A DNA stretch of 64,000 nt from positions 1,278 through 65,277 of the IMG/VR virus record IMGVR_UViG_2562617039_000002; one strand, given 5' to 3'. The translations under genes and the position numbers were made by a program. Positions 1 through 62,157 of the stretch are shown piece by piece. Below the pieces are notes generated by a model. It was not told the DNA's origin. It was given only the letters and a program-made list of their open reading frames with translations, and ran no database searches. Within the stretch, counting starts at the first letter, position 1. The number at the start of each line of letters is the position of its first letter. Source of the stretch: a virus (taxonomy: Duplodnaviria > Caudoviricetes).

Positions 1-89
1 TTCTGTCGCGCCCACAAGCAGGAAGGCGAGGATGCGCTGGCTGGACGGCGAAAATAGGAATGCTATTCTCCCCAAACGAGGAGGAGCGC

Positions 90-2802: not shown

Positions 2803-3134
2803 TAGACACCCTCCCTCACCTTCCGCTTTGGTTCTTCGAACTTCTCAGTCACCGGCCCGCCCGCAAGCAGACCGCGCAGCGCCGATAGCTTATCGCGAAC
2901 AAGTGGACGAAACCGACGCGCCGCAAACGGCGGGTTGTCGTAACCGAACTGAGGGCAAACCCCTCGATCGACGCCTTTCAGCCGAACGCCGATGAAACTG
3001 CCCTGCGTGTAGTGCTCGAACGGGCCAATCCAGCTTATGGTGTAGACTTCGCCCTCCTTGATCTCCAAGAACTGCTCGAACCCGACCTTGGCATCGATGC
3101 AGACGACCTGCTGTCCTACATGGAAGTTGGTCAT
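2802..3134 (-). CDS. Phage hypothetical protein
   Basis: ATGA-coupled to the upstream gene; FHVGQQVVCID start. Confidence 0.7.
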   Translation of the reverse strand: MTNFHVGQQVVCIDAKVGFEQFLEIKEGEVYTISWIGPFEHYTQGSFIGVRLKGVDRGVCPQFGYDNPPFAARRFRPLVRDKLSALRGLLAGGPVTEKFEEPKRKVREGV

Positions 3135-3634
3135 GCCGCATCCCTCCAAGCCCCTAACCGCCGAAATTCTACCAGCACACCATAGCTACGCGCTCGCGCC
3201 ATTCCTTCCGCCATGCCTCGACTCATACCGAAGTCTTCATAGACAACGCATTTCTCCGCCACGCGATACCATGCAAGGCCGGCCTCGATGCCGAGTTCAC
3301 GTTCATCTGGCCGCATATCATCCAGCACTTGCGTGTGCAGTAGATGACTCGCAATCGGCGCTTCGCTCCGGCGCAAGCTGTCCTGAAGGCAAGCGCGAGC
3401 ATAATTGGTGTTGCGCGCAACGTCGCCACTATAAGGGCTTTCGATGATGACGAGAGGCTTGCGTGCCGGTTGTGAGGCAACGGCCACATTGTCGTTATAA
3501 GGTTTTGGCAGGTGACTTATAACCTTCCCACCTGCCCTAATCTGCCTTCCTTCAACAGCCGCTCGCGCAGCTAGGTCTTCTTCCTGCCATTCGTCGCCTG
3601 GCTGATGTACGCCGTAAAGCTGGTGTAGCTCCAT
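3131..3634 (-). CDS. Nucleoside 2-deoxyribosyltransferase-like / DUF4406-like protein
   Basis: VIIESPYSG...N..YAR...PIASHL...G...S.GM..E-type pattern; AACACGAGGAG RBS. Confidence 0.6.
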   Translation of the reverse strand: MELHQLYGVHQPGDEWQEEDLAARAAVEGRQIRAGGKVISHLPKPYNDNVAVASQPARKPLVIIESPYSGDVARNTNYARACLQDSLRRSEAPIASHLLHTQVLDDMRPDERELGIEAGLAWYRVAEKCVVYEDFGMSRGMAEGMARARSYGVLVEFRRLGAWRDAA

Positions 3635-3687
3635 ATTTCTCTCCTCGTGTTTGTGGTGAAAGCGCCGCTTGGTGGGCGGCGCGGTGG

Positions 3688-4974
3688 TCAGGCTGCCGCA
3701 CGGCTGGGCTTGTTATCATTCGCGGCCACCGGCATACGCGCGGCGCCCATTACCCGGGCGGCCGACAAAATCACTCGCCCGTCTTCGCCATAGTTCTTGT
3801 GGTAAGTGATTACTTTGGCGGAGCGGCCAGAAAGCCAGTTTGAACCATACGCATCTGGAGCGGCTAGTGTCTCGTGCTGTTCGACTTTCATGAGGTCGGT
3901 CGTTCGCAGTTCGTCAGCATGACGGTGGCCGGTGTGAGCGTAACTGTATTTTGTGCGGCCGTAGATCTCGCGGTACTTGCCGACCATGATCGAATCCACG
4001 TTTTTAGTCCCGCGACGATGGCCGTGGTGATAGAATAACGAGACGTTTCCGTGCTCAATGACGGAGTAGGTCCCCGGGTTCGTATCGAAGTTGACGCGGG
4101 GCTCGTCCTCATAAAACGCAGCGAAAGATTCACGAAGCCACACCTCCCCGGCGGGATCGTGATTTGCATCGCACATGATTACGTCCACTTGCTCGTGCTT
4201 TTCGAGCAGCATCCTCACAACGGTGCGGATGATACGGATTGCGGCGCGCACCATCTTTGGATACCGGCTATCGCTGTCCAAAAGGTGGCCGTGTTCCGGC
4301 GTCAGACTCTTGAATGAATCGTAGTGCAGAAAATCGCCTAACTGAGCGAAGACCGCACGCCTGGCGTTAGGAGATTGGGCAATAGCTGCGGCAAACCAGT
4401 CGAGAATTAGTTGTTCCCCGATCCTCAAATCGTAATCGCCCGCCCCGGTTTCTTCATTCCACGCAAGGGCGCCCAAGTGATGATCGGTAATTGTATACTG
4501 GTTCAGCAAGTCATCCGCAGTATGCGTAGGCGGGAGGACGGGCTTTGCTCGCGGGAGTTCATCTTTGAAGCCTTGCAAAGCTGCCGACATCGCTTCGGCG
4601 CGAGCCTTATCGTCAGCCCGCTCCATGATGTGCTGCGTAATCACCCGACCTTCGGCATTAACGAGCGTCGTCTTGCCTTTGACGGCAAGGCCAGCCGTTG
4701 GCTCGTAAGCCGGGCCAGCCTCTTTCGTCTGGCGCATGTAAGTGCCGTTCGGCGTCTCGGTCAGGCTTTTGATCGCATAGCCGGGCAATGTCGGTGACGG
4801 ACCCAACAGCCCAATCTCAGCGGCCCGCTTTATGCTTTCGTGGAACGCCGACTTCTTGATGCCAAGCGCAGCGGCAGCCTTAACCAGCGTACCGTGCTCG
4901 CGGTAAGCCTCGGCACGCCGCAGGAGTTCTTCGTGTGAAAGGCGCGCACCCGCGCCCTGTCTGTCATGGGACAT
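3688..4974 (-). CDS. Calcineurin-like metallophosphoesterase with N-terminal HTH
   Basis: Motifs TDHHLG, GDFLH, ANHD, HHGH, GHRH; start M44 of the track ORF after AACACGAGGAG. Confidence 0.85.
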   Translation of the reverse strand: MSHDRQGAGARLSHEELLRRAEAYREHGTLVKAAAALGIKKSAFHESIKRAAEIGLLGPSPTLPGYAIKSLTETPNGTYMRQTKEAGPAYEPTAGLAVKGKTTLVNAEGRVITQHIMERADDKARAEAMSAALQGFKDELPRAKPVLPPTHTADDLLNQYTITDHHLGALAWNEETGAGDYDLRIGEQLILDWFAAAIAQSPNARRAVFAQLGDFLHYDSFKSLTPEHGHLLDSDSRYPKMVRAAIRIIRTVVRMLLEKHEQVDVIMCDANHDPAGEVWLRESFAAFYEDEPRVNFDTNPGTYSVIEHGNVSLFYHHGHRRGTKNVDSIMVGKYREIYGRTKYSYAHTGHRHADELRTTDLMKVEQHETLAAPDAYGSNWLSGRSAKVITYHKNYGEDGRVILSAARVMGAARMPVAANDNKPSRAAA

Positions 4975-5151
4975 ACAGTCTCCTCGTGTTTGGTTGGTAG
5001 CCGACTCGCGGCGCGGATTGGTCGTCCGATAGTGAAAAGAGAATGAGTCTCGAGATGAGATGTCAAGCGGGAATAAGAAAGACGCCGCGTAACCTTCAGG
5101 CAAGGTTCATCTCCCAGCTTCTGTTTTGAGGATATGGAAGAGGAGTAATCA

Positions 5152-36655: not shown

Positions 36656-36684
36656 CTCTCCTCGTAATCGAAAAGGAGAATGAA

Positions 36685-38454: not shown

Positions 38455-38654
38455 GCTGCCTCCTCATTCAGAAGATCCGACAGGTACACGCCGTCGACCG
38501 CATAGAACTCGAATTCTTCCCGGCGCTTAATTGCCGCCGTCTGCCAGCCTCTTAGTTCCAAGTCTCGTGCATATGGAGATGATGAATGCTGGTCTTCATC
38601 GATCGGGCAGTTGTCATTCGCGGCGAAATATTTGTCTTTCAGTTTCTGCTTCAT
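38451..38654 (-). CDS. Hypothetical protein
   Basis: ATGA-coupled on both sides. Confidence 0.65.
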   Translation of the reverse strand: MKQKLKDKYFAANDNCPIDEDQHSSSPYARDLELRGWQTAAIKRREEFEFYAVDGVYLSDLLNEEAA

Positions 38655-39160
38655 GCTGCTTTCCCCTTCTCTTGTGCAAGCCACCCCAGAACCGCCGTAA
38701 CGGCCTGCTCAGCGGCCTCTGTCGTTGTGGTGGCCCGAATGACCAGAACCGTGTAGCCAAGCCGCTGTAGGGCAGCGTGGCGGTCTTTCTGGGCCGGCGA
38801 CAGTCTTCCCTGCCCGACCTTGTTCTCGATCATCAGCAGACGCCCGTATTCGCCATAGATGCGAAGGTCAGGTTCGCCGCTGGTCATTCCTGTTGCGATT
38901 GCCTGAGCTTGGGCTCTTGGCCCGCGCTTGCTGGCGTTCATGTCACCCGCCAGCAGGAACTGGCGTTGGTACTGTGGCAGTCGGCGCAGGCTGGCTACTT
39001 GTGCCGCCTGTAATTCCCATTCGAGCGGCGGGGCTGGCTTGGTCGTCACCTTCCCGGCCTTTGTGGTGACCTTGACGCGAGCGCCGTTGATGCGGACGGT
39101 TTGTGTTTTGGTGGCGGTCGTGGTCGTAGATGAAGGCGCGCGCGTGCGGTTGCGTGCCAT
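38651..39160 (-). CDS. VRR-NUC domain nuclease
   Basis: GEPDL, IENKVGQGRLSPAQK..H..L..LG..V.V. Confidence 0.85.
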   Translation of the reverse strand: MARNRTRAPSSTTTTATKTQTVRINGARVKVTTKAGKVTTKPAPPLEWELQAAQVASLRRLPQYQRQFLLAGDMNASKRGPRAQAQAIATGMTSGEPDLRIYGEYGRLLMIENKVGQGRLSPAQKDRHAALQRLGYTVLVIRATTTTEAAEQAVTAVLGWLAQEKGKAA

Positions 39161-39315
39161 GTGAGCTCCTCGTGCTTATTGCGGTATGCCGTTGGTAGCG
39201 GCGAGAGGAGTGTGGAGTGCCTCAATAAATGTGGTGTTAATGACCGACGTAGCGTGGCGAAAATTTTCCGCCCGCCTCAAATCAGGTTGTATTCTGGAAT
39301 TGGCAAAAATCAGGA

Positions 39316-45487: not shown

Positions 45488-45804
45488 AACGGCGCCTCCT
45501 TCAACGCTTCCCGCATCCCTCGCCCGCACCCTTCCCATGCGGCTTTGACCAGCATGCGCGCTTCCAGTTCGTCCATTTCCTTAAGGTCGGTTTTCTGTAT
45601 GGCCTGCAAGTATTCCCCAACCGACTCGACGCCGGTATCAAGGGCGCGCAGTTCGTAAGGATCTAGCCGACGCCGATGCCGAATATGCTCGGCGATGTCG
45701 GCGCATTCCTTGCACAGCCAGCGGATTGGCTCGCGGTCTACCTGCACGCCGAGGCCGGCGGCGTGGCGGGCGCAGACGTGGCAGATGTCGGCGTCAGGCT
45801 GCAT
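45484..45804 (-). CDS. Hypothetical Zn-finger protein (DUF6511-like)
   Basis: C.VCAR...WLC..C, ends EAPF. Confidence 0.65.
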   Translation of the reverse strand: MQPDADICHVCARHAAGLGVQVDREPIRWLCKECADIAEHIRHRRRLDPYELRALDTGVESVGEYLQAIQKTDLKEMDELEARMLVKAAWEGCGRGMREALKEAPF

Positions 45805-46831
45805 TTGCAGTCTCCGCGCAGTTGTCGTTGGCCACGTCGAAGATGTTGTCTTGCCTGTTATCAAGCGCCGCAATGTTCCGCCCAGCCTGCAAAAAGTAGG
45901 ACGGCTTTAGCTCGAACCCGATACCCTTACGCCCGGCAGCAACCGCGCCGTATACCTCACTACCGATTCCGAGAAATGGCGTCAGCACGACGTCGCCGGG
46001 ATTGCTCCACAACTCGATGCAACGCTCAATAACGTCCAACTGCAAAGGCGAAATGTGCTGCTCGTCCTTCTCGTCGCGTGCCGACCGATACTGCAGGGTG
46101 CGTGTCTGGTTGATGTCCATCCAGACTGGCGATGCATAACGCTGCCAGACTTCAATCGAGAACCATTTCTCGGCCCGTGCCCGATCTTCACCAGATGCCA
46201 ACCTGTCAGCTAATGCCGTCGGTTCGTTGCCATAGCCGACATAACGATCGAACATGCCATCAACCGGGTCAGGATTATCGCCCGGCTTACGGAACATCAG
46301 CATATAGTCAGCAAGTCCCTGCCCGCTGATCGTGCTATCCTTGGTGATCTGCTTATGCAGAAGACGGATGGATTTCGTGCGCTGCTGCGCGACAACTGGA
46401 TCTTTCCAGATGCAAACTTCACTGTGGAAGATCCAACCTGCATCTTCGTATGCGCGCACCACTTCACCGCGGAAGTCGCGCATGCCGATATGGCCATGTC
46501 TGATCTTGCTGGTTGGCAACTGCATGCAATGCACTGCGTGGATTCTGCCCGGCATGGTCACGCGTAGCAATTCTTGGATCAGGTAGGCGTAGTGCTCCCA
46601 AAATCCATCGCCGTCGTTGTTGCTAATGTCGCGATCGGAATTGCTGAACCGATAAAGCCCCTCGAAAGGCGGGCTATGGATGCCAAAATGCACCGTTCCA
46701 GTCGGTACGCCGCGAATAAGTTCGCATGCGTCACCTTCATAGATGGCGTAATTGTCGGTGATGACTTGATTGATGGCTTTCACCGCCGCAATTTTAGTTT
46801 CGATAGATTGGTCGGTAATTCTCTTGCTCAT
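45794..46831 (-). CDS. DNA methyltransferase, N4-C/N6-A beta class
   Basis: Motif IV SPPF before motif I LTPFLGIGSE; HISPLQLDVIERC. Confidence 0.9.
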   Translation of the reverse strand: MSKRITDQSIETKIAAVKAINQVITDNYAIYEGDACELIRGVPTGTVHFGIHSPPFEGLYRFSNSDRDISNNDGDGFWEHYAYLIQELLRVTMPGRIHAVHCMQLPTSKIRHGHIGMRDFRGEVVRAYEDAGWIFHSEVCIWKDPVVAQQRTKSIRLLHKQITKDSTISGQGLADYMLMFRKPGDNPDPVDGMFDRYVGYGNEPTALADRLASGEDRARAEKWFSIEVWQRYASPVWMDINQTRTLQYRSARDEKDEQHISPLQLDVIERCIELWSNPGDVVLTPFLGIGSEVYGAVAAGRKGIGFELKPSYFLQAGRNIAALDNRQDNIFDVANDNCAETANAA

Positions 46832-46850
46832 GAAATTCTCCTCGTGTCGG

Positions 46851-48257
46851 TCATTGGGCTACGGCGTTGGTGGTGAGCCACGCCGGTATTTGCATAGACT
46901 GTTGCGGGTTGTAGTTCGGCTTGTCGCGCACAGCGCCACGAACCGCCTCGCTGGATAGATCGGCCATATGCATGACCATGGCCGCCGCCATACGTTCGGC
47001 ATCGGCTTCCTTGCGCCGGAGGTTGGCGACAACCGCACCTTCCGTTTCGGCCGCAATGAAATGGACATTTACGGGCTGGGTCTGACCAAACCGCCAGAAG
47101 CGACGAACGGCTTGGAATATCTGCTCGAAGCTGTCATTCAGGCCAACAAAGCCCGTATCGGCGCAATGCTGCCAGTTCATCCCGAAACCGGCGATTGACG
47201 GCTTGGTGATCAGAACGCGGATCTTGCCATTCGAGAAATCGACCAACTTTCGGCGCTTATCATCGTCCTTGTCAGATCCAGACAGATTGACGGCGCCGTC
47301 GATTGCCTTGGTGAGCGCGTCGGCCTCGCTGTTGAGATTGCACCACCAGACGAACGGCTTGTCATTAGGCGTCAGGCTGGCAGCAAGTGCGACACGTTCT
47401 TCCACGCTGTCTTTCCGTGCCGAGATGCGTTCCTGCATCGTGCGGGCTTCCATGGGGAACAAAAGACCGGTCTCAAGGCTCGGCGCATATTCGACTTTCA
47501 CCGTGTGCTGATAGTAGGCCAGTGGCGGCAGGTCGTAACCTTCGTTGTCATATCCAAGGTCGGACGGCTTGCGCAGCATGACCGACCAAGACGCCATCCA
47601 TTTCCAGAATTCGGTTTCAGCATGGCCCTTGAGGCGCCATTTCTGTGTCTCGCCGCCGTCATGGGTGAAGAACGTCGCCAGCATGTCGGTGTAGGACATC
47701 ACGCCGAGAAATTCGGCATGGTTGCCGAGCTCCATGAAATCATTCGGTGCCGGCGTTGCTGTGGCGGCTAGACGGAAAGGAATGGTCGAGCATTCCTCGA
47801 TCAAACGATTGCGATATTTGCCGTCTGTGCTTTTCAGGATGCTGCTTTCGTCAAGAACGCAGCCGCCGAACTTGGACAAATCGAAGTGATCCATCTTCTG
47901 GTAGTTGGAGACATTCACGCCCCAGCCCTCATCCGGGTGAAAACTCACCAGGTTAGCCGCGATACCGAACTTGTCGGCCTCCATGATGTGCTGCTCGGCA
48001 ACGGCCAGCGGCGCGAAGATCAGCGTGGGCTTGCCGGTGAACTCGCTCACCTTCTCGCCCCACGTCAGTTCCATAAGCGTCTTACCGAGGCCTGTGCCCG
48101 CGAAAATAGCAGCACGCCCACGTCGCAAAGCCCACCGCACGATATCACGCTGATGTGGCTTTAGCGTGTGGCTTAGTTCTGGAATGTCAGTCATTCCCGT
48201 CACGGGATCGGCAATGACCTTCCCTTGCAGGAAACGCGCGTAGGCGTCCATCCTCAT
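46851..48257 (-). CDS. SNF2-like SF2 helicase
   Basis: LKPHQ, GTGLGKT, LDESS, TATPAPN, QAVRRFWRFGQ. Confidence 0.9.
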   Translation of the reverse strand: MRMDAYARFLQGKVIADPVTGMTDIPELSHTLKPHQRDIVRWALRRGRAAIFAGTGLGKTLMELTWGEKVSEFTGKPTLIFAPLAVAEQHIMEADKFGIAANLVSFHPDEGWGVNVSNYQKMDHFDLSKFGGCVLDESSILKSTDGKYRNRLIEECSTIPFRLAATATPAPNDFMELGNHAEFLGVMSYTDMLATFFTHDGGETQKWRLKGHAETEFWKWMASWSVMLRKPSDLGYDNEGYDLPPLAYYQHTVKVEYAPSLETGLLFPMEARTMQERISARKDSVEERVALAASLTPNDKPFVWWCNLNSEADALTKAIDGAVNLSGSDKDDDKRRKLVDFSNGKIRVLITKPSIAGFGMNWQHCADTGFVGLNDSFEQIFQAVRRFWRFGQTQPVNVHFIAAETEGAVVANLRRKEADAERMAAAMVMHMADLSSEAVRGAVRDKPNYNPQQSMQIPAWLTTNAVAQ

Positions 48258-48310
48258 CTCCTCGTGTTTCGTGGTGGTAACCCGCCAGTTGGTGGCTGGC
48301 GGGGTGTTGG

Positions 48311-48493
48311 TTATAGGCTGGATGCGCCGCCTTGCTGCTCGGCAGCAATCGGGCGGGTTAGGTCGGGAAACCAGTCGTCGTAGGTGGCGACGTCAATCAT
48401 TGCGTCTGCCAGCGAATCCGTTTCTTGCCAATAGGCGTAATAGTCTGGCTCGTCGTCAGGGCCCAGCATAGCCATCCACGGTGCGTAATTCAC
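48311..48493 (-). CDS. Small acidic hypothetical protein
   Basis: GTGA-coupled to the Gp157 stop. Confidence 0.5.
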   Translation of the reverse strand: MNYAPWMAMLGPDDEPDYYAYWQETDSLADAMIDVATYDDWFPDLTRPIAAEQQGGASSL

Positions 48494-49023
48494 GCCGCCC
48501 TCACCGTAAGCGTGGGCTGGCCTTCGCGCAGGACGGCTCCCTTGACGATCTTCCCAGCATCCAGCGCCTCTTTGATAAGTGTCTTGTCAGGCGATTTCAC
48601 AACCTTCAAAAAACGCGCAGGCACAGCGGATTCGTCCACTATCTCAACCCCGGCGCGCCCTTTACCGACCGACACAGTCGCTTCCGGCAGGCTAACTTTG
48701 TTCAGGTCAGCGGCCTTCAACAGGCGCAGCAACAAGGCCCGCATGGCGTCCTTGCGTCTGGTGTATCGATCTTTGCGCGCGGCCAATTCCTTGGCGCGTT
48801 CGCCGATGGCCAGTACCATGCTGTTTGCATCGCGCTCGATGGCCACGATCTTACCGAGCACGCGGTATGCGTCCGTCTCGCCTTCGATTGTGTCGGCGCG
48901 CAGTTCCTCATCTTCGGCCAATTCTGGGTATGCCGCAACCAAGTCGGCGAATTCCCGTTCCAGAACGGTGACATCATAGGCCAGATAGTTCTGTGCTTTC
49001 GTGTTGTCGGCTTTGTTTTGCAT
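48490..49023 (-). CDS. Siphovirus Gp157 family protein
   Basis: DTIEGETD, SPDKTLIKEAL.AG..V.GA.L. Confidence 0.85.
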   Translation of the reverse strand: MQNKADNTKAQNYLAYDVTVLEREFADLVAAYPELAEDEELRADTIEGETDAYRVLGKIVAIERDANSMVLAIGERAKELAARKDRYTRRKDAMRALLLRLLKAADLNKVSLPEATVSVGKGRAGVEIVDESAVPARFLKVVKSPDKTLIKEALDAGKIVKGAVLREGQPTLTVRAA

Positions 49024-49195
49024 TGTTGCTCCTCGTGTTTCGGTGGTTGGTTGGTTAGTCCGGTAGGTAAGTTAACATGCCTCGCGGCGCATCCCGTTAA
49101 TGGATTGGTTTATTTTGATAAACTTAATCCTACTGTTTTAGTGTAATTAATACTTGGATTTAACTGTTGCGCGCTTTGATTGTTTATGTATATTC

Positions 49196-49322: not shown

Positions 49323-49329
49323 ACGCCTC

Positions 49330-49450
49330 GTCCGGTTTTACTCCTCCTCCCAGAAACCGGACCCTAAGCGCGGTACTCCTCCTCCCAACCGCGCTTTTCA
49401 GATCGGCCCGCTTCGCTCCTCCTCCCAATCGCGAAGCGGGCTTTTCTATT
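49330..49450 (+). ncRNA. Cuckoo / alpha-r14 family sRNA (three CCUCCUCCC hairpins)
   Basis: Stems TCCGGTTT/AAACCGGA, AAGCGCGGT/ACCGCGCTT, GCCCGCTTCGC/GCGAAGCGGGC, each with a CTCCTCCC-containing loop; U-tail. Confidence 0.88.
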
Positions 49451-53382: not shown

Positions 53383-54423
53383 TTAGACCCTCATCGGCAT
53401 AAGCACGCCCGTCCACTCGCCCTCGCCCTTGACGACGGCAGGCGAGCCTGCATCGCCGAGAGCAAAGCGCACGTTTGCTTCATCCAACGCGCCAAGCATG
53501 TCGTTGACGTACCGGGCGTTAAAGCCGATTTCCAAAGGCTCGCCCTCGAATTCAATCGAAACTTCATCGCTAGCCTTGTCAGCCAGCATCAGTCGCAGCA
53601 CATCGCCGACCGCGAATTTCACGGCTCGCGATTTGTCATCCGCAACCGCGGCGACACGCTCGACGGCCTTCATGAGCGCCTGCCGGTCGACGCTAAGCAC
53701 GTTCGCATTGCCGGTTGGAATGACGCGCACATAGTCAGGGAACGTGCCGTCGATCAGCTTGGAAGTGATAACCGTTGAGCCAGACGTGACGCGCACCTTG
53801 TTCTGCGACAGTTCAACGGTAACCGCGCCCTTCGGTAGTAACCCGACCATCTTACGCGGCAGGATCACACCGTAGTCCAAGTCGCCGGTGGGGCCGACAT
53901 TGCGCATCAGCCGGTGCCCGTCAGTTGCGACAGCAACCAAGCGGCCGTCAACGGCATGCAGATAAACGCCATTGAGGTAATAGCGGGTTTCTTCGGTCGA
54001 AATGCAGTGCACACAAGGCGCAACAAGCGCAGCCAGATCCAGCTCAAGGGTTGTGTCGAACTTCCCTGCACTGAAGGACGGAAAGTCCTCAACGGGCAAA
54101 ACGTCGAGCTTGTAACGGCTGCGACCAGACGCGACGGTAAGGCGGCCGTCATCTAAGGCAAGCGATATGTCGCCCGTCACGCGCTTGGCGATATCCGCAA
54201 GCATCTTGCCGGGAACGGTCACGCTACCGGGCTGGCAGTCGAGCACCGGCAGACTGGTCGTTATCTCCACGTCCAGATCAGTGCCTGTCAGGCGCAACTG
54301 GCCGTCCTCGACCGCCAAGAGCACGTTGGCGAGAATGGGGATTGTGTTTCGGCTTTCGATAGCACGGTTGACGGTTGCCAAGGCGTGCGCGAGCTGTGAG
54401 CGGTCAATGCTGACTCTCATCAA
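53383..54423 (-). CDS. dnaN: DNA polymerase III beta sliding clamp, phage-encoded
   Basis: TIPILANVL, TGTDL, ETRYYLNGV, VATDGHRL, LIDGTFPDY.RVIP, IGFNARY, VLMPMRV. Confidence 0.95.
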   Translation of the reverse strand: MMRVSIDRSQLAHALATVNRAIESRNTIPILANVLLAVEDGQLRLTGTDLDVEITTSLPVLDCQPGSVTVPGKMLADIAKRVTGDISLALDDGRLTVASGRSRYKLDVLPVEDFPSFSAGKFDTTLELDLAALVAPCVHCISTEETRYYLNGVYLHAVDGRLVAVATDGHRLMRNVGPTGDLDYGVILPRKMVGLLPKGAVTVELSQNKVRVTSGSTVITSKLIDGTFPDYVRVIPTGNANVLSVDRQALMKAVERVAAVADDKSRAVKFAVGDVLRLMLADKASDEVSIEFEGEPLEIGFNARYVNDMLGALDEANVRFALGDAGSPAVVKGEGEWTGVLMPMRV

Positions 54424-54480
54424 AGTCTCCTCGTGTTCGGTGGTAGAAGGCGCGGTTGGTAACCGCGCCTGTTGTTAAGC

Positions 54481-55032
54481 TTAGCCCCAAGGTCGCTTCT
54501 TGCCTGCCGCAGCAGCCGCTGGCGCTGGCTTGTTGCTGTTAGCCGCAGCCGGTCGGTTGTCATTGGCCGGGCGGGCCTGCGCTACGGGCTGGTTGGCGTC
54601 GATCGAAGGCTGGGGGACGTTGCCCTCATCGGGGAAGTAGTACTTCTTGATCTCGGCGCGAGCCGGGTATTGGCCGTCCTTGGAAGGCTTTCCGAGACCA
54701 ATCTTTGCCGTAAACGCCTTGAAGTGCAGTTCTTCGGAATCCTCGACTTCCGAGACGCCGATCGCTCGGCAAAGGCTCGCGAACTGACGCTGGCCGATCT
54801 CTTGCGCCTGCGCGTTCTTGTGTTCCAGATTGTAGAAATTGAAGACCTTGCGGCCCTTGTATTCCTCAGGGCGAAGAACCGTCATCGTTGTCTTGAGGCC
54901 GGTACCGTTTGCGCCTTCCTTGACCTCCGACGCCTCGATTTCCAGTTCATAGTCGCCGTTCGGCAGCTCTTCGTAGTCCCGCTGCTCCGTATCGTGAGCA
55001 GTCGCATCAAATCTGCTGGCTAGTTTTGCCAT
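54481..55032 (-). CDS. DUF669-family single-stranded DNA-binding protein
   Basis: LPNGDYELEI, GRKVF..YNL, EIGQRQFASLCRAIG. Confidence 0.8.
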   Translation of the reverse strand: MAKLASRFDATAHDTEQRDYEELPNGDYELEIEASEVKEGANGTGLKTTMTVLRPEEYKGRKVFNFYNLEHKNAQAQEIGQRQFASLCRAIGVSEVEDSEELHFKAFTAKIGLGKPSKDGQYPARAEIKKYYFPDEGNVPQPSIDANQPVAQARPANDNRPAAANSNKPAPAAAAAGKKRPWG

Positions 55033-55075
55033 CTGTCATTTCCTCGTGTTGTTGGTGGTGTGGTAGCGGCGAGAC

Positions 55076-55318: not shown

Positions 55319-56127
55319 TAGGCGGCCTCCCTCTGGTCATTGTCGTTGGCAACGTCGAGGTATTTTGAAAGCTCCTCGAAGCCATGCCCCTGCCGATAAG
55401 GAATGGTGGCCGGTGCACCTTTCAACCGGTTCTTCGCCAAGAACCCGGCCCGCTCATCTGTATGGATGACGCGTTCTGCGCCAGACATCCCCTCTGGCTT
55501 ATTCTTCTTTTCGCCGCCGAAGCCTTCCTTCACTTGCTTTACGGACGTGCGGCGGTTGAGAAATAGAAGCGCCTTACAGTTTTCGATGACGAGATCGAGA
55601 GCCCTCTTCTGCAATTTCGGGCGATATCGATCATACGAATCCACAAGAGGATCATTGAACGACTTAGCTTCACTGTGCAGGATCTGAATTACAAACAGTC
55701 CTGCCCGGTTTAGCGCAGCGATAGCCTCGTGGTATTCTTTCCATTCGACGTCCGCGGCGAGGTAACCCTTGCCAAAAGCTGTCGGGGAGCCCTTGTCGTT
55801 GCTATCGATGGAATCCCATCCGTTTCGCGCGCAGGTCGCAGCCCAAACCATCGGCTCGATCTTATCGACCGAATCCAGAATGACAGTCTGAAATTCGTGT
55901 TCTTCGGTCAGAATTTCTCCGAAAGTATCCAGAAGGTCGCTGAACGAAGTGATTTCAGCACTTGGTAGGTCGATGCCGTCTGGCGGCTCCTCGCCTTCAA
56001 CATAAAGATAGATCGGCTTTGGGAACTCAGCAGCAAGACTGGTTTTTCCGACGCCGGGCGTGCCGTAAATGGCAATCGACGGTGGCGTCTTGCGTTTACT
56101 GGACTTCAATCTGTCAAAAACAGACAT
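55318..56127 (-). CDS. AAA_24 / Sak4-like ATPase (recombination)
   Basis: IYGTPGVGKTSLA, TVILDSVD, FLAKNR. Confidence 0.88.
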   Translation of the reverse strand: MSVFDRLKSSKRKTPPSIAIYGTPGVGKTSLAAEFPKPIYLYVEGEEPPDGIDLPSAEITSFSDLLDTFGEILTEEHEFQTVILDSVDKIEPMVWAATCARNGWDSIDSNDKGSPTAFGKGYLAADVEWKEYHEAIAALNRAGLFVIQILHSEAKSFNDPLVDSYDRYRPKLQKRALDLVIENCKALLFLNRRTSVKQVKEGFGGEKKNKPEGMSGAERVIHTDERAGFLAKNRLKGAPATIPYRQGHGFEELSKYLDVANDNDQREAA

Positions 56128-56267
56128 GTCGTCTCCTCGTGTTCAGTAGGTGTGGTGGGTAACGGCGATCGCGGCGATGACAGCCGAAAGTATGAGCCAG
56201 CCGACAAGCCACGCCGGAGGGCTTGTGAGGGCTGCTGCGCAGTTGTCGCGTGGAGGTCTGCTGGACA

Positions 56268-57035: not shown

Positions 57036-57102
57036 GATTGCCTCCTCATAGGGAGGTTAGTCGTCGGCCCCGTCATCCTCGCGGTCGGCCTGCCTCAAAG
57101 GG

Positions 57103-57387
57103 CTAGTGGACCGTGCCCGTAAATGGACCGTCCAAAATGGTTATGCGGGGCAACGAGACATAAATGTCCATGCATCCTCCCGAATATCCGCCGTTGTAGG
57201 TTGTGCGGCGCACAACGGTGCTTGGGGTAGGCTCTGGCGCCGATAGCGTGGGCGATCTTTCCGAAAGCAGCGACCAGGCGTGGCCTCTGGTAATGCCCAT
57301 CAATTCCGCAATCTTCCCGAACGACGCGCCATTTTTACGGTGCGCGGCGGCAGTTGCCTGCAGTTCGTGCCTTGATGAATGCTGCAT
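57103..57387 (-). CDS. Small HTH protein
   Basis: GASFGKIAELMGITRGHAWSLL; CACACGAGGAG RBS. Confidence 0.7.
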   Translation of the reverse strand: MQHSSRHELQATAAAHRKNGASFGKIAELMGITRGHAWSLLSERSPTLSAPEPTPSTVVRRTTYNGGYSGGCMDIYVSLPRITILDGPFTGTVH

Positions 57388-57413
57388 GTCTCCTCGTGTG
57401 TGGTTGGTGACTG

Positions 57414-57442
57414 TTGACAAGTGCCGTGTCTAACGGCATCTG
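57414..57442 (+). promoter_or_regulatory. Antisense sigma70-type promoter
   Basis: TTGACA-N17-CATCTG (weak -10). Confidence 0.55.
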
Positions 57443-57446
57443 TCTG

Positions 57447-57572
57447 GTCGCGCGGGGTGGTACCTGCGAAGGAAATCGCGGCGTAGAAGCGGCTTCGGCC
57501 CTCCTCGTGTTAACCGCGACGTACGGGCAGGCTGGGGTAACGGGTGGTGCCGACCCATAACAGCCTGCTTTT
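57447..57572 (+). ncRNA. Candidate antisense sRNA with CUCCUCGUGUU seed
   Basis: Closing stem GTCGCG/CGCGAC, GGC-UUCG-GCC hairpin, seed 57501-57511, terminator GCAGGCTG...CAGCCTGC-TTTT. Confidence 0.6.
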
Positions 57573-58422
57573 AATTGGCCGTCTTATACTGCGACCAGAT
57601 AATCGCGGCGAATTTCTGCCGATCAGTTTCGTCTAGCGCGGCCCATGCATCCCAGAACGCTTGACGCTTTCTGTCTTTGTTTGATGCCACTGCTTTTGCG
57701 GCGCCCTCGGCAATAATCTCAAGTGCCTTATCGGCGGTTATTGGCTTGGGCTCCGGCGCTGGGCGTGCGCTGACCTTTTCGCCCCGCTCTGCTCGGCTGA
57801 TAAGGTTTTCGCGTTCTTCGTCAGGCAGGCCAATGAGCGCATCCATTTCGACGCCCTTGTCTAGGCTAGTGCCGACGATCCGGTTGATGTCGGAGCCGAG
57901 TACCCTTCCTCTCGCCGCGGCCATCCTGATCGCACGGTCAGTTTTGCCAGAGGCCGAGGCTGTTTCTTGGACGAATGATGCCTTATCCGTGTGGAAAAAT
58001 TTGCCAGACGGTGATTGATTCCCACCGTGTTTTGTCTCCGGGTGAATCTTCTCATAAATAGCCTTCCGCCGAGCAATGTGCGATGCCTCTTCGGCTGGCG
58101 ACAGTTCCGAACGGGCCAGATTCTCGTCGATTTCCATGAGCTCAGCATGAAGATCGTCAACGTCATGAACGACGCATTCTACATATTCCTCGCCGTTCAA
58201 TTTAAGTGCCGCCAAGCGGTGGCGGCCATAAATCAAAACCGCCACCCCATCGCATAACTCTCCGTCATCCATGACGATTTCGTCACGGATGCAGACCGCC
58301 GGCGGGTTCATTAGTCCGACTTCGGCAATGCTCTTCGCAATCTCTGCAACTTTGGCGCCATCGGCATTACGATGGCGATTGCCGATAAAAATGTCATCAA
58401 TGAACAGCCGCCGACGTTCCAT
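57571..58422 (-). CDS. ParB/Sulfiredoxin N-terminal domain protein
   Basis: IA.SI..VGLMNPP.V, YGRHRLAA, EIDENL.R.ELSPAE. Confidence 0.88.
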   Translation of the reverse strand: MERRRLFIDDIFIGNRHRNADGAKVAEIAKSIAEVGLMNPPAVCIRDEIVMDDGELCDGVAVLIYGRHRLAALKLNGEEYVECVVHDVDDLHAELMEIDENLARSELSPAEEASHIARRKAIYEKIHPETKHGGNQSPSGKFFHTDKASFVQETASASGKTDRAIRMAAARGRVLGSDINRIVGTSLDKGVEMDALIGLPDEERENLISRAERGEKVSARPAPEPKPITADKALEIIAEGAAKAVASNKDRKRQAFWDAWAALDETDRQKFAAIIWSQYKTAN

Positions 58423-59959: not shown

Positions 59960-60091
59960 CTCCTCGTGTTTTCTGGTCGGTCAGCCTTGGGTTGGTACTA
60001 TCTGTCCGGTCGCGGAAGCTCCGGCTTCTCTTTGTGCAACTCATTCTCCTTTTCTGTGCTCCGGTCTTCTTTGGGCCGGTTGATGACAAAG

Positions 60092-60143
60092 GTTATATAC
60101 GCGATTCGTATTTTCGTCAACTCCTTACATACGTTTTTCGTAT
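60092..60143 (-). promoter_or_regulatory. Leftward lytic promoter with two operators (OL-like)
   Basis: TTGACG-N17-TATAAC (60120-60092); ATACG-N5-CGTAT at 60097-60111 and 60129-60143. Confidence 0.88.
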
Positions 60144-60159
60144 TTCCTACTGTGATTAC

Positions 60160-60186
60160 AAAAAAAGGCCGCTATAGCGACCCTTT
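60160..60186 (-). terminator. Terminator of cI
   Basis: AGGGTCGC-TATA-GCGGCCTT-TTTTT on the minus strand. Confidence 0.8.
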
Positions 60187-60206
60187 ACTACTATCCGATT
60201 AGCGTA

Positions 60207-60794
60207 TTAAAGCTGGCGCCAGAATTCCCGCGAAATGCGTATCACCAGCTTGCGAGCCCAAACGATCCGGACATCTTCTATGTCTGGTGCATTCGTACTA
60301 GATAACGTGAATAGCCCAGGCTCCGATCCGCGGCGGATCGTTTTGATTAGCATCCTGTCGTCCTCAAGGCGAACCATGCACGTCTGGCCAAGCGCATCGT
60401 CCGCCGTCAACTCCTTGCCCGAATAGGCAACTAGGTCGCCATCCTCGAATATCGGATACATGCTGTCGCCCCGTACGATAGCGCCGACCGTACCCTGCGG
60501 CAGCGCCGCCGCTACCGAAACCTCATATAACGGATCACCATCATCGATTGGATATACAGCCGCACCCGCCCCGACATAGCCTAGCACTGGAATCACAGAT
60601 TTGCGATCCGGCATAGGCAGCCCGCTCAATCGGCTCATGACGACCATTTCATGAGCTTTAAGCTGACGCTTGCCTTTGAGTATTTCGCTAATGGTAGGCT
60701 GACGACCGAGACCGAGCTCTTTCGCTACTTGCTCTTGGGTGAGCCCGCTGGCTTCTAAGGCCTCCGCAAACCACTTGATTACTTCGCTATCCAT
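60207..60794 (-). CDS. CI-like repressor (XRE HTH plus S24 peptidase), probably leaderless
   Basis: GLTQEQVAKELGLG.QPTISEI..GKR; VRGDSMYP Ser and LIKT Lys. Confidence 0.92.
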   Translation of the reverse strand: MDSEVIKWFAEALEASGLTQEQVAKELGLGRQPTISEILKGKRQLKAHEMVVMSRLSGLPMPDRKSVIPVLGYVGAGAAVYPIDDGDPLYEVSVAAALPQGTVGAIVRGDSMYPIFEDGDLVAYSGKELTADDALGQTCMVRLEDDRMLIKTIRRGSEPGLFTLSSTNAPDIEDVRIVWARKLVIRISREFWRQL

Positions 60795-60800
60795 AAAAGC

Positions 60801-60880
60801 GTTATCGCATAATCGTATATTTATGTCATATACGCTTTTCGTATTTCCGGCTTGACCTTTTAATACGTTTATCGTATACA
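60801..60880. promoter_or_regulatory. Divergent PRM/PR region with operators (OR-like)
   Basis: PR TTGACC-N17-TATACA (60852-60880); PRM ATGACA-N17-GATAAC on minus; ATACG-N5-CGTAT at 60830-60844 and 60863-60877, degenerate copy 60804-60818. Confidence 0.85.
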
Positions 60881-60954
60881 ACTCCCCAACAGCACGAAGA
60901 AGCGACCGACGCCGATCTGCTGACCACCCACCAAAACACGAGGAGACTGCAATT

Positions 60955-61218
60955 ATGGAACCCACCAAGAGAAGAAGAAGCCCCAAGCCTCGCCCGAATG
61001 AAATCATCGGCGGCGGATTCTTTGTATTCCGCCGCGGTAAGAAGACTGGCCGGGTTGGAGTCTTCACCACCATGCCATACGAACACGGCTCGTTTGAGCA
61101 AGCTTTGGCCGAGGCGACGCGCCTCGCTGCCCTGTGCCCTGGCGAGACGTTCGAAGTTTTCCAGACGAGCGGCGCCGTAGCTTGCTGCACGCCGGTAGTG
61201 CTGGCGGAGGCTGCTTAA
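60955..61218 (+). CDS. Hypothetical early protein
   Basis: AACACGAGGAG RBS; no HTH. Confidence 0.8.
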   Translation: MEPTKRRRSPKPRPNEIIGGGFFVFRRGKKTGRVGVFTTMPYEHGSFEQALAEATRLAALCPGETFEVFQTSGAVACCTPVVLAEAA

Positions 61219-61788: not shown

Positions 61789-61896
61789 GGCACGAAAGAT
61801 AGCGACGGGGCGCTAAAGCCCCCGAACCTCCAAGAACAACGGCCTTTGCGCAATTGGCGCCACGGCTTTTTGCCCCCACCAACACGAGGAGACCCC

Positions 61897-62157
61897 ATGT
61901 CCAGATCCATCACGCACGCCGTTATGGCACCCATCCTGACCGCCGCCGAATTTCAGCAACAAGGCACGACCGCCGCGCAGGTCTTATCGATTTCGAAGGC
62001 AGTGCGCGCTCTTGGTTATCACTCCGAGGCTGAGACGCTGCGCGACACCGCTTTCGAACTGGCGCGCATTACCGGCGTTCGGTTCCGCTACGGCGCTGCG
62101 CGCCAGCGTCGCAGCCCGGCCAACGACAATCGCCGCCGGATGCGGAGGGCGGTGTGA
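61897..62157 (+). CDS. Hypothetical protein
   Basis: AACACGAGGAG RBS before ATG 61897. Confidence 0.75.
   Translation: MSRSITHAVMAPILTAAEFQQQGTTAAQVLSISKAVRALGYHSEAETLRDTAFELARITGVRFRYGAARQRRSPANDNRRRMRRAV

Follow-up and report, generated by a model that had tools for sequence, protein, structure and literature searches.

A conserved small-RNA family predicted in Brucellaceae prophages carries an invariant complement of a ribosome-binding motif shared by early phage genes

In a provirus recorded in IMG/VR we find, on the plus strand of the 64,000-nucleotide stretch analysed here (hereafter the window), a predicted small RNA of about 124 nt (57449-57572; 5' end inferred from the position of the -10 element, 3' end from the T-run) that contains the exact complement of a motif shared by the ribosome-binding sites of 13 phage genes. 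The comparative data argue strongly for a plus-strand gene with its own promoter and terminator whose product displays the 9-nt segment CUCCUCGUG, and we hold it to be very probably a real and hitherto undescribed family of phage small RNAs. The preliminary description of this DNA went further and proposed that the RNA acts on the shared ribosome-binding site. Here the support is indirect; judging from sequence, we lean slightly towards the view that the early genes are targeted by the small RNA at their standard ribosome-binding region.

The motif, AACACGAGGAG, is present in the whole window in ten exact and four one-mismatch copies, just as first counted and placed, against 0.90 expected from shuffles of the window; the most copies seen in any shuffle was four, and none of 100 shuffles reached 14. 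An ATG lies 5-9 nt past 13 of the 14 copies, each preceded, in the orientation of the motif, by a C/A-rich tract, which bears out their reading as the ribosome-binding sites of 13 genes. The genes concerned serve mostly DNA metabolism. On the minus strand, exact copies precede genes for a nucleoside 2-deoxyribosyltransferase-like protein (motif 3641-3651, gene 3134-3634), a DNA repair exonuclease (4980-4990, 3691-4974), a helicase (48258-48268, 46854-48251), a Mu Gam-like protein (49029-49039, 48493-49023), a sliding clamp (54427-54437, 53386-54420) and a Sak4-like annealing protein (56133-56143, 55321-56127), and one-mismatch copies precede those for an endonuclease/resolvase-like protein (39166-39176, 38654-39160), a DNA methyltransferase (46838-46848, 45797-46831) and an SSB-like protein (55040-55050, 54484-55032). 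The remaining sites belong to a small HTH-like gene (57103-57387, minus strand; one-mismatch copy at 57390-57400) that directly follows the small-RNA gene in the direction of the mRNA and for which no PHROG family was found; to the first short ORF, of 13 aa, after the early promoter (59960-59970, minus strand); and to two small plus-strand genes, one of 87 aa in a divergent operon (motif 60935-60945, gene 60955-61215) and one of 86 aa (61881-61891, 61897-62154). No copy stands at the terminase, portal, major head, tape measure or tail fibre genes (6-36 kb), in line with the earlier remark that the motif marks early, replication or nucleotide-metabolism genes and was seen before no head or tail gene.

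The ribosome does not account for the whole motif. The host 16S 3' end, of which GGATCACCTCCTT was confirmed in host genome G003 and whose bases beyond CCTCCTT we take to be those generally known, does not pair further into the AACAC part, so that something other than the ribosome must constrain those bases. Two further copies of ACGAGGAG lie elsewhere in the window: one at 76-83 (plus strand), 6 nt before an ATG and possibly an extra target, and one at 36658-36665 (minus strand), directly upstream of a tRNA-Met/tRNA-Thr pair and with no start codon. In addition, a GC hairpin precedes several of the minus-strand motif start sites (about 48281-48303, 54449-54469 and 3662-3682); its loop reads CCACCAA or TTACCAA on the mRNA strand and no U-run follows. 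Such loops could make kissing contacts with GGUGG loops of the small RNA, or could be processing or stability elements.

The fourteenth copy, at 57501-57511, has no ATG, GTG or TTG at Shine-Dalgarno distance on the minus strand, as the preliminary description had noted. A minus-strand ORF behind it was rejected, since the start codon is missing and no conserved ORF follows the orphan copy in relatives; the TTG found near it in one subgroup is 3 nt from GGAG and is not conserved. Read on the plus strand, the copy falls inside the predicted small RNA. The putative promoter of the latter (57414-57442, plus strand) consists of a -35 hexamer TTGACA (57414-57419), a 17-nt spacer and a -10-like CATCTG (57437-57442); like this promoter, the cUUCGg hairpin (GGC-UUCG-GCC) and the terminator-like arms GCAGGCTG/CAGCCTGC followed by TTTT are all present as first described. 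All 62 distinct extended sequences contain TTGACA-N17-CA(T)NTG with fixed spacing and at a constant distance from the first hairpin (CATCTG in 53, CATATG in 6, CATTTG in 3). These hexamers and a covarying hairpin with a T-rich tail would speak for an independent unit. On the other side of the balance, the -10 is atypical in that the usual final T is missing (the phage early promoter, for comparison, reads TTGACG-N17-TATAAC), the U-tail is poor in some variants (UAUAAA, AUAUAU, UUCA), and consensus scans called neither the promoter nor the terminator.

Between the -35 and the -10, within the spacer, lies a palindrome, TGCCGT-GTCTA-ACGGCA (57422-57438), whose arms change in concert among relatives. 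Its G.U-type cells number 104 on the minus (mRNA) strand versus 16 on the plus strand, and it shows no correlation with the type of the downstream HTH-like gene. It occurs only once in the window, and a role as a repeated operator was therefore rejected; it may bind a protein that controls access to the promoter, or fold in the mRNA as a hairpin in front of the HTH-like start site.

The strongest evidence for a gene comes from its relatives. A stretch of 170 nt after the stop codon of the ParB-like gene upstream (on the mRNA strand) is kept in all relatives of that protein, down to 52% identity, and a pattern built from this stretch and used to search viral and genome contigs finds the module at 78 loci (61 viral and 17 genome contigs), all of them in prophages or Brucellaceae genomes. 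The 17 genome contigs all come from Brucellaceae, namely Falsochrobactrum, species transferred from Ochrobactrum to Brucella, and two Rhizobiales. Sixty distinct sequences were obtained from these loci. The upstream flank is one of several unrelated sequences, the upstream gene not being ParB-like in many loci, and at least six different genes follow downstream. The conserved block starts exactly at the TTGACA and stops at the tail of the last hairpin, which, together with the differing flanks, is the footprint of a self-contained transcription unit. The search for homologues in related prophages that had been suggested at the outset thus returned 78 loci with a covarying structure and an invariant seed. 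A search of a phage-isolate database with 57100-58000 gave no match; Rfam holds no family matching the small RNA at gathering score, and none in 57350-57650 at E<=10; and among the titles and abstracts returned by full-text searches on prophage anti-SD small RNAs and on Ochrobactrum temperate phages, none describes it.

A covariance model, R1, built on the plus-strand structure proposed here, finds one match per locus, with 54 matches at E<=2.5e-16. In its alignment 90.9% of cells are paired, versus 38-46% when the partners are slid by 1-3 columns; both sides have changed in 26 of 31 pairs, and none of 500 shuffles reached any of the observed measures. The same compensations are already visible in the 5' and 3' hairpins of a plain MAFFT alignment. 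The conserved secondary structure with compensatory changes that is expected of a trans-acting base-pairing small RNA is therefore present.

The fold (all on the plus strand) begins with a 5' hairpin, CGCGGG/CCUGCG (57451-57468; arms 57451-57456 and 57463-57468), in which GGGUGGUAC, including the loop GUGGUA, is invariant, 98.9% of cells are paired and four of six pairs show double changes. It is followed by a single-stranded AAGGAA linker (57469-57474), whose columns are invariant or nearly so among 45 distinct sequences and which reads AAGAAA in one variant found later; Hfq might bind this linker as an ARN site, or the seed might pair with it within the molecule. Helix P2 (57476-57519), formed by UCGCGG (57476-57481) and CCGCGA (57514-57519), encloses hairpin P3 (GGC-UUCG-GCC, 57491-57500; 3 bp with a tetraloop) and, on its 3' side, the seed. 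The P2 arms co-vary (CCCCGG/CCGGGG, CCAGCG/CGCUGG, GGAGAG/CUCUCC, AGAAGGG/CCCUUCU, GCCAAGG/CCUUGGC); the model aligns them poorly, with 68.5% of cells paired, and RNAalifold on the plain MAFFT alignment missed the helix. Beyond a GUACG linker stands a long terminator-like hairpin (57527-57572) with outer (57527-57534/57561-57568), middle (57535-57538/57553-57556) and inner (57541-57543/57550-57552) helices, an invariant apical GGGUGGUG (loop GUGGUG) and UUUU at 57569-57572; double changes affect eight of eight outer and five of seven inner pairs. The closing stem first proposed, GTCGCG at 57447 with CGCGAC at 57517, is present in the letters of the window; we reject it because it is not maintained in relatives, where TCGCGG/CCGCGA, that is P2, covaries instead. 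An invariant UCGUG/UACGG pairing, returned by RNAalifold on the plain MAFFT alignment, was likewise set aside, as it shows no covariation.

A divergent type of the small RNA is found at other loci (L039, L107, L096, L030 and G001:C2:196417-196540), with P2 arms GGAGAG/CUCUCC, a GAAA loop and the -10 CATATG. It occupies a different gene neighbourhood, in L039 with a tyrosine-integrase-like ORF nearby, and has no motif start sites within 8-10 kb (L030 group); in a complete genome, four such sites lie 24-28 kb away. Perhaps a different mobile element carries the same RNA here.

The columns that never change between the variable stems, GGGTGGTAC, A.G.AA, CTCCTCGTG, TAC and GGTGGT, correspond to the two hairpin loops, the linkers and the seed. 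Three segments are both invariant and largely single-stranded: CUCCUCGUG and the two GGGUGGU loops. The seed, CUCCUCGUGUU (57501-57511, plus strand), is the exact complement of AACACGAGGAG, and its core, CUCCUCGUG, is identical in 45 of 45 distinct small-RNA sequences. A search of IMG/VR that required only the loops and AAGGAA returned, at its stringency, no homologue without the seed; this seed-free pattern recovered the known homologues and, besides them, unrelated coding DNA only. The seed had been described as apparently unpaired. This stands for its 3' part, GUGUUAA, which is open in predicted folds, and only in part for the core, which is partly paired with GAAG; the mean probability of being unpaired across the 9-nt core is 0.34 in the window variant and 0.24-0.65 across variants. 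What is present is a conserved, partially accessible seed that matches 12 start sites here and many in relatives.

The location of the gene offers another account of its function, and this is the main rival to action in trans. The small-RNA gene is antisense within the minus-strand early operon, opposite the junction of the ParB-like and HTH-like genes; its terminal hairpin abuts the stop codon of the upstream gene, and it does not overlap the ribosome-binding site of the downstream gene. Like the cis-antisense RNAs of the OOP and Sar type, it thus overlaps an opposite mRNA. The plus-strand RNA might be real and act only in cis, as a convergent antisense RNA at this junction, through cleavage, downstream decoupling or transcriptional interference, and the likeness to a ribosome-binding site could stem from a former start site on the sense strand, which indeed resembles the other intercistronic units of the phage (a hairpin with an ACCA-type loop, a C/A tract, then the motif). 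Full complementarity to the overlapping mRNA would, however, hold whatever the sequence, so that three invariant unpaired blocks amid varying stems are left unexplained, as is the retention of the seed by the divergent type in a different gene context. We therefore consider a purely cis-acting RNA unlikely.

Action in trans, which we prefer, draws on the match between these invariant blocks and the start sites. The complement of the seed core, CACGAGGAG, is found at 12 start sites in the window and at 4-9 per locus of about 10 kb in relatives; among 297 distinct GAGGAG-N4-10-ATG contexts in the family, AACAC precedes 131 and CACAC 44. Both GGGUGGU loops complement ACCACC tracts ahead of the motif. 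Of 28 ACCACC copies in the window, seven fall within the 40-nt stretches ahead of the 13 motif sites (13 x 40 nt), versus 0.11 expected (about 60-fold), and family-wide CCACC lies upstream of 55% of motif start sites versus 5% of other GGAG..ATG sites. The C/A tract stands 5' of the motif on the target, which fits the position of the seed 5' of the terminator loop in the RNA, and AACAC of the motif complements GUGUUAA, the very part of the seed that is open in predicted folds.

The flanks of the match were compared as well. At loci whose small RNA reads ...GUGUU, AA precedes CACGAGGAG in 72 of 77 start sites, and at ...GUGUA loci the sites are split between AA (36) and CA (35); single changes within ACAC of the motif comprise eight transitions, which keep a wobble pair, versus two transversions. 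Since the loci are related, both signals, read from sequence comparison, are weak, and shared ancestry may account for the co-occurrence and the association at the flank. In UA-type and GC-type loci the complementarity of seed and motif extends over just 10 and 9 nt. Since seed and motif are both invariant, there is no true compensatory change between seed and target, and the search for co-variation suggested in the preliminary description yielded no compensatory pair. Duplex energies of seed and loops did not separate targets from control start sites in this GC-rich DNA.

Could the RNA mainly target host mRNAs instead, through its anti-SD-like CUCCUC and the G/U-rich loops, with the phage match being secondary? 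It is generally known that ar14/cuckoo and AbcR RNAs of the same bacterial order act with anti-SD seeds on many host mRNAs. The distribution of the motif nevertheless makes this quite improbable: outside prophages, the 10-mer complement is at background in host genomes (1-4 copies versus 0-3 for the reversed control), motif clusters within host genomes occur in prophages only, and the invariant extension CGUG of the seed matches the phage-specific part of the motif. Phage-type clusters are present in only two of 151 family genomes (G003 and G110), both of which carry the small RNA, and G110 has two clusters with one small-RNA copy in each. Eight motif copies in a further genome (G055) proved to be a tandem coding repeat and not start sites. 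Contig fragments with a motif cluster and without the small RNA (L147, L171 and others) are uninformative on its absence, because they are 15-40% complete.

Which strand, then, is the functional one? Folding of the single sequence favours the minus strand, with z -3.4 versus an unremarkable -0.69 for the plus strand. The functional molecule could accordingly be the mRNA itself, as a structured intercistronic mimic of a start site without a start codon, serving ribosomes, a RegA-like translational repressor or an anti-SD small RNA as decoy or standby site; one such RNA, the phage's own ar14 with CUCCUCCUCCC loops, is encoded 8 kb away. In the mRNA, the pairing of AGGAG with CUUCU includes a G.U that 52 of 60 sequences retain, and the palindrome has its G.U bias on the same strand. 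However, the 5' hairpin contains 38 G.U cells on the plus strand that would be A.C mismatches on the minus strand, and none the other way round. Across 45 variants, the P3 loop on the plus strand is UUCG in 15, GCAA in 14, GAAA in 7 and GUAA in 1, so that 37 of 45 are UUCG or GNRA loops, whereas the minus-strand counterparts (CGAA, UUGC, UUUC) include no canonical or stable tetraloop. A T/A-rich tail follows the last hairpin on the plus strand only, the minus strand lacking a U-run, and a minus-strand element would have no use for the conserved TTGACA-N17-CATNTG. Covariation and G.U asymmetry outweigh the misleading single-sequence folding, and from G.U asymmetry, tetraloops, promoter and tail we conclude that the functional strand predicted by the sequence is the plus strand; a functional element confined to the mRNA is very improbable. 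The sense RNA probably folds as well, given the conserved G.U in AGGAG/CUUCU and the bias of the palindrome. This is expected for a region transcribed within an operon, and it would mask a Shine-Dalgarno sequence without start codon on the mRNA.

Least credible of all is an element acting as DNA (a single-strand origin, or a centromere for the ParB-like proteins encoded next to it) or a relic without function: the module does adjoin two ParB-fold genes in the window phage, and hairpins in single-stranded DNA tolerate G.T too, but the upstream gene is not ParB-like in many loci, the UUCG/GNRA loops and the promoter/terminator layout point to RNA, and a relic is excluded by conservation with covariation across phages whose ParB-like proteins are only 52% identical.

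We would like to place the small RNA into the context of known regulators. The alpha-r14/cuckoo RNAs (RF02344, e.g. NfeR1) are trans-acting small RNAs of Rhizobiales whose unpaired C/U-rich anti-SD motifs occlude many ribosome-binding sites. The new RNA resembles them in being alphaproteobacterial and in having an anti-SD segment complementary to ribosome-binding sites. It differs in that its CUCCUC lies in an internal loop and not in hairpin loops, which are G/U-rich, and in that the extension CGUG(U) matches the phage-specific motif. In place of the two or three hairpins with CCUCCUCCC in their loops that characterise ar14, it has the loops GUGGUA, UUCG and GUGGUG, and the RF02344 model finds no match in 57350-57650 even at E<=10. 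A true ar14 is encoded in the same prophage at 49326-49446 (plus strand, 81.2 bits), also antisense to the early operon and with three hairpins bearing CUCCUCCUCCC loops, so the phage carries two different anti-SD-type RNAs; the ar14 loops could pair with GAGGAG of the motif too.

Among phage RNAs, c4 of P1 and P7 and CI of P4 silence lytic functions of the prophage through short exposed segments near ribosome-binding sites, and both are processed from the same transcript that bears their one or two target sites. The present RNA shares with them its prophage origin and its short segments complementary to ribosome-binding sites. Unlike them, it has a convergent promoter-like element of its own and 13 candidate sites, lies on the strand opposite to 11 of the 13 motif genes and shows no sequence or model similarity, the C4 family giving no Rfam match at gathering score or at E<=10. 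Because the model searches are negative, we place it outside both the ar14/cuckoo and the c4 families. Lambda OOP and P22 Sar are short RNAs with their own promoter and terminator that are directed against an early or immunity operon and overlap an intercistronic junction, a layout that recurs here; those RNAs act on the overlapping mRNA only, whereas the invariant blocks of the new RNA match distant start sites. In T4, RegB cuts GGAG and RegA binds early initiation regions, so that a whole early gene set is controlled through a shared ribosome-binding sequence, as proposed here; these are proteins, and the proposed reader of the shared site in the present phage would be an RNA. GcvB pairs through a G/U-rich single-stranded region with C/A-rich enhancers upstream of many ribosome-binding sites; it belongs to the host core genome, folds differently and lacks an anti-SD segment, and the resemblance is functional only. 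To our knowledge, the phage regulatory RNAs described so far (c4, CI, Sar, OOP) are directed at one or two sites apiece, and regulon-wide control of phage early genes at the ribosome-binding site is exerted by proteins (RegA, RegB). By analogy, the new RNA would combine features of an anti-SD small RNA (ar14, AbcR), a phage immunity RNA (c4, CI) and a convergent antisense RNA (OOP, Sar), with a regulon logic that would otherwise be known only from RegA and RegB.

From the conservation, covariation, strand bias and complementarities described above, we infer a model of transcription, pairing, repression and titration, in which a small RNA with its own promoter occludes the Shine-Dalgarno sequences of DNA-metabolism genes and is titrated by early mRNA; taken as a whole, we judge this model marginally favoured. 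In the lysogen, a CI/LexA-like repressor (about 60207-60830, minus strand) would keep the early promoter off, and a separate promoter, convergent to the early lytic operon, would supply the small RNA. Early mRNA that leaks through or comes from an incoming phage would be intercepted at the initiation cassette, composed of ACCA(C/A)C, (A/C)ACACGAGGAG, 5-9 nt and the ATG, with which CUCCUCGUG(U) and the GGGUGGU loops would pair. The open GUGUUAA would pair first with the non-SD AACAC, and contacts between loops and C/A tract could also start pairing, which would then spread over the Shine-Dalgarno sequence, block 30S binding and repress translation of the DNA-metabolism gene set. On induction, the early operon would be strongly transcribed towards the small-RNA gene. 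Because that gene lies antisense in the operon, the abundant early mRNA would contain all 124 nt of the complement, pair with the RNA and titrate it, and so lift repression. The outcome would be a threshold-type second layer of lysogeny maintenance, or the exclusion of related phages. As for the arrangement of the region, the end of the CI/LexA-like repressor gene at 60207 is followed by a hairpin with a T-run and then by the early promoter (60090-60207, minus strand); repressor and early operon thus share a strand, something unusual in an immunity region.

More speculatively, the small RNA might be a translation-level immunity factor across the phage family, silencing superinfecting relatives while the resident phage escapes by titration. 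Relatives share the ACCACC tract and the ACACGAGGAG cassette, so one prophage RNA could silence any relative, whatever its repressor specificity, and the divergent copies with different gene neighbours would have been acquired by other elements, which use the same RNA to fight this family. We regard this extension as doubtful.

Whatever the mechanism, with the covariance model the prophages of Brucellaceae gain a well-supported family of small RNAs. If the proposed action is true, the phage would possess an RNA-based master switch for its lytic programme, in which three segments of one small RNA are set against a cassette on about a dozen genes, and this would explain why an 11-nt ribosome-binding motif is kept up although its first five bases add nothing to the pairing with the 16S rRNA.
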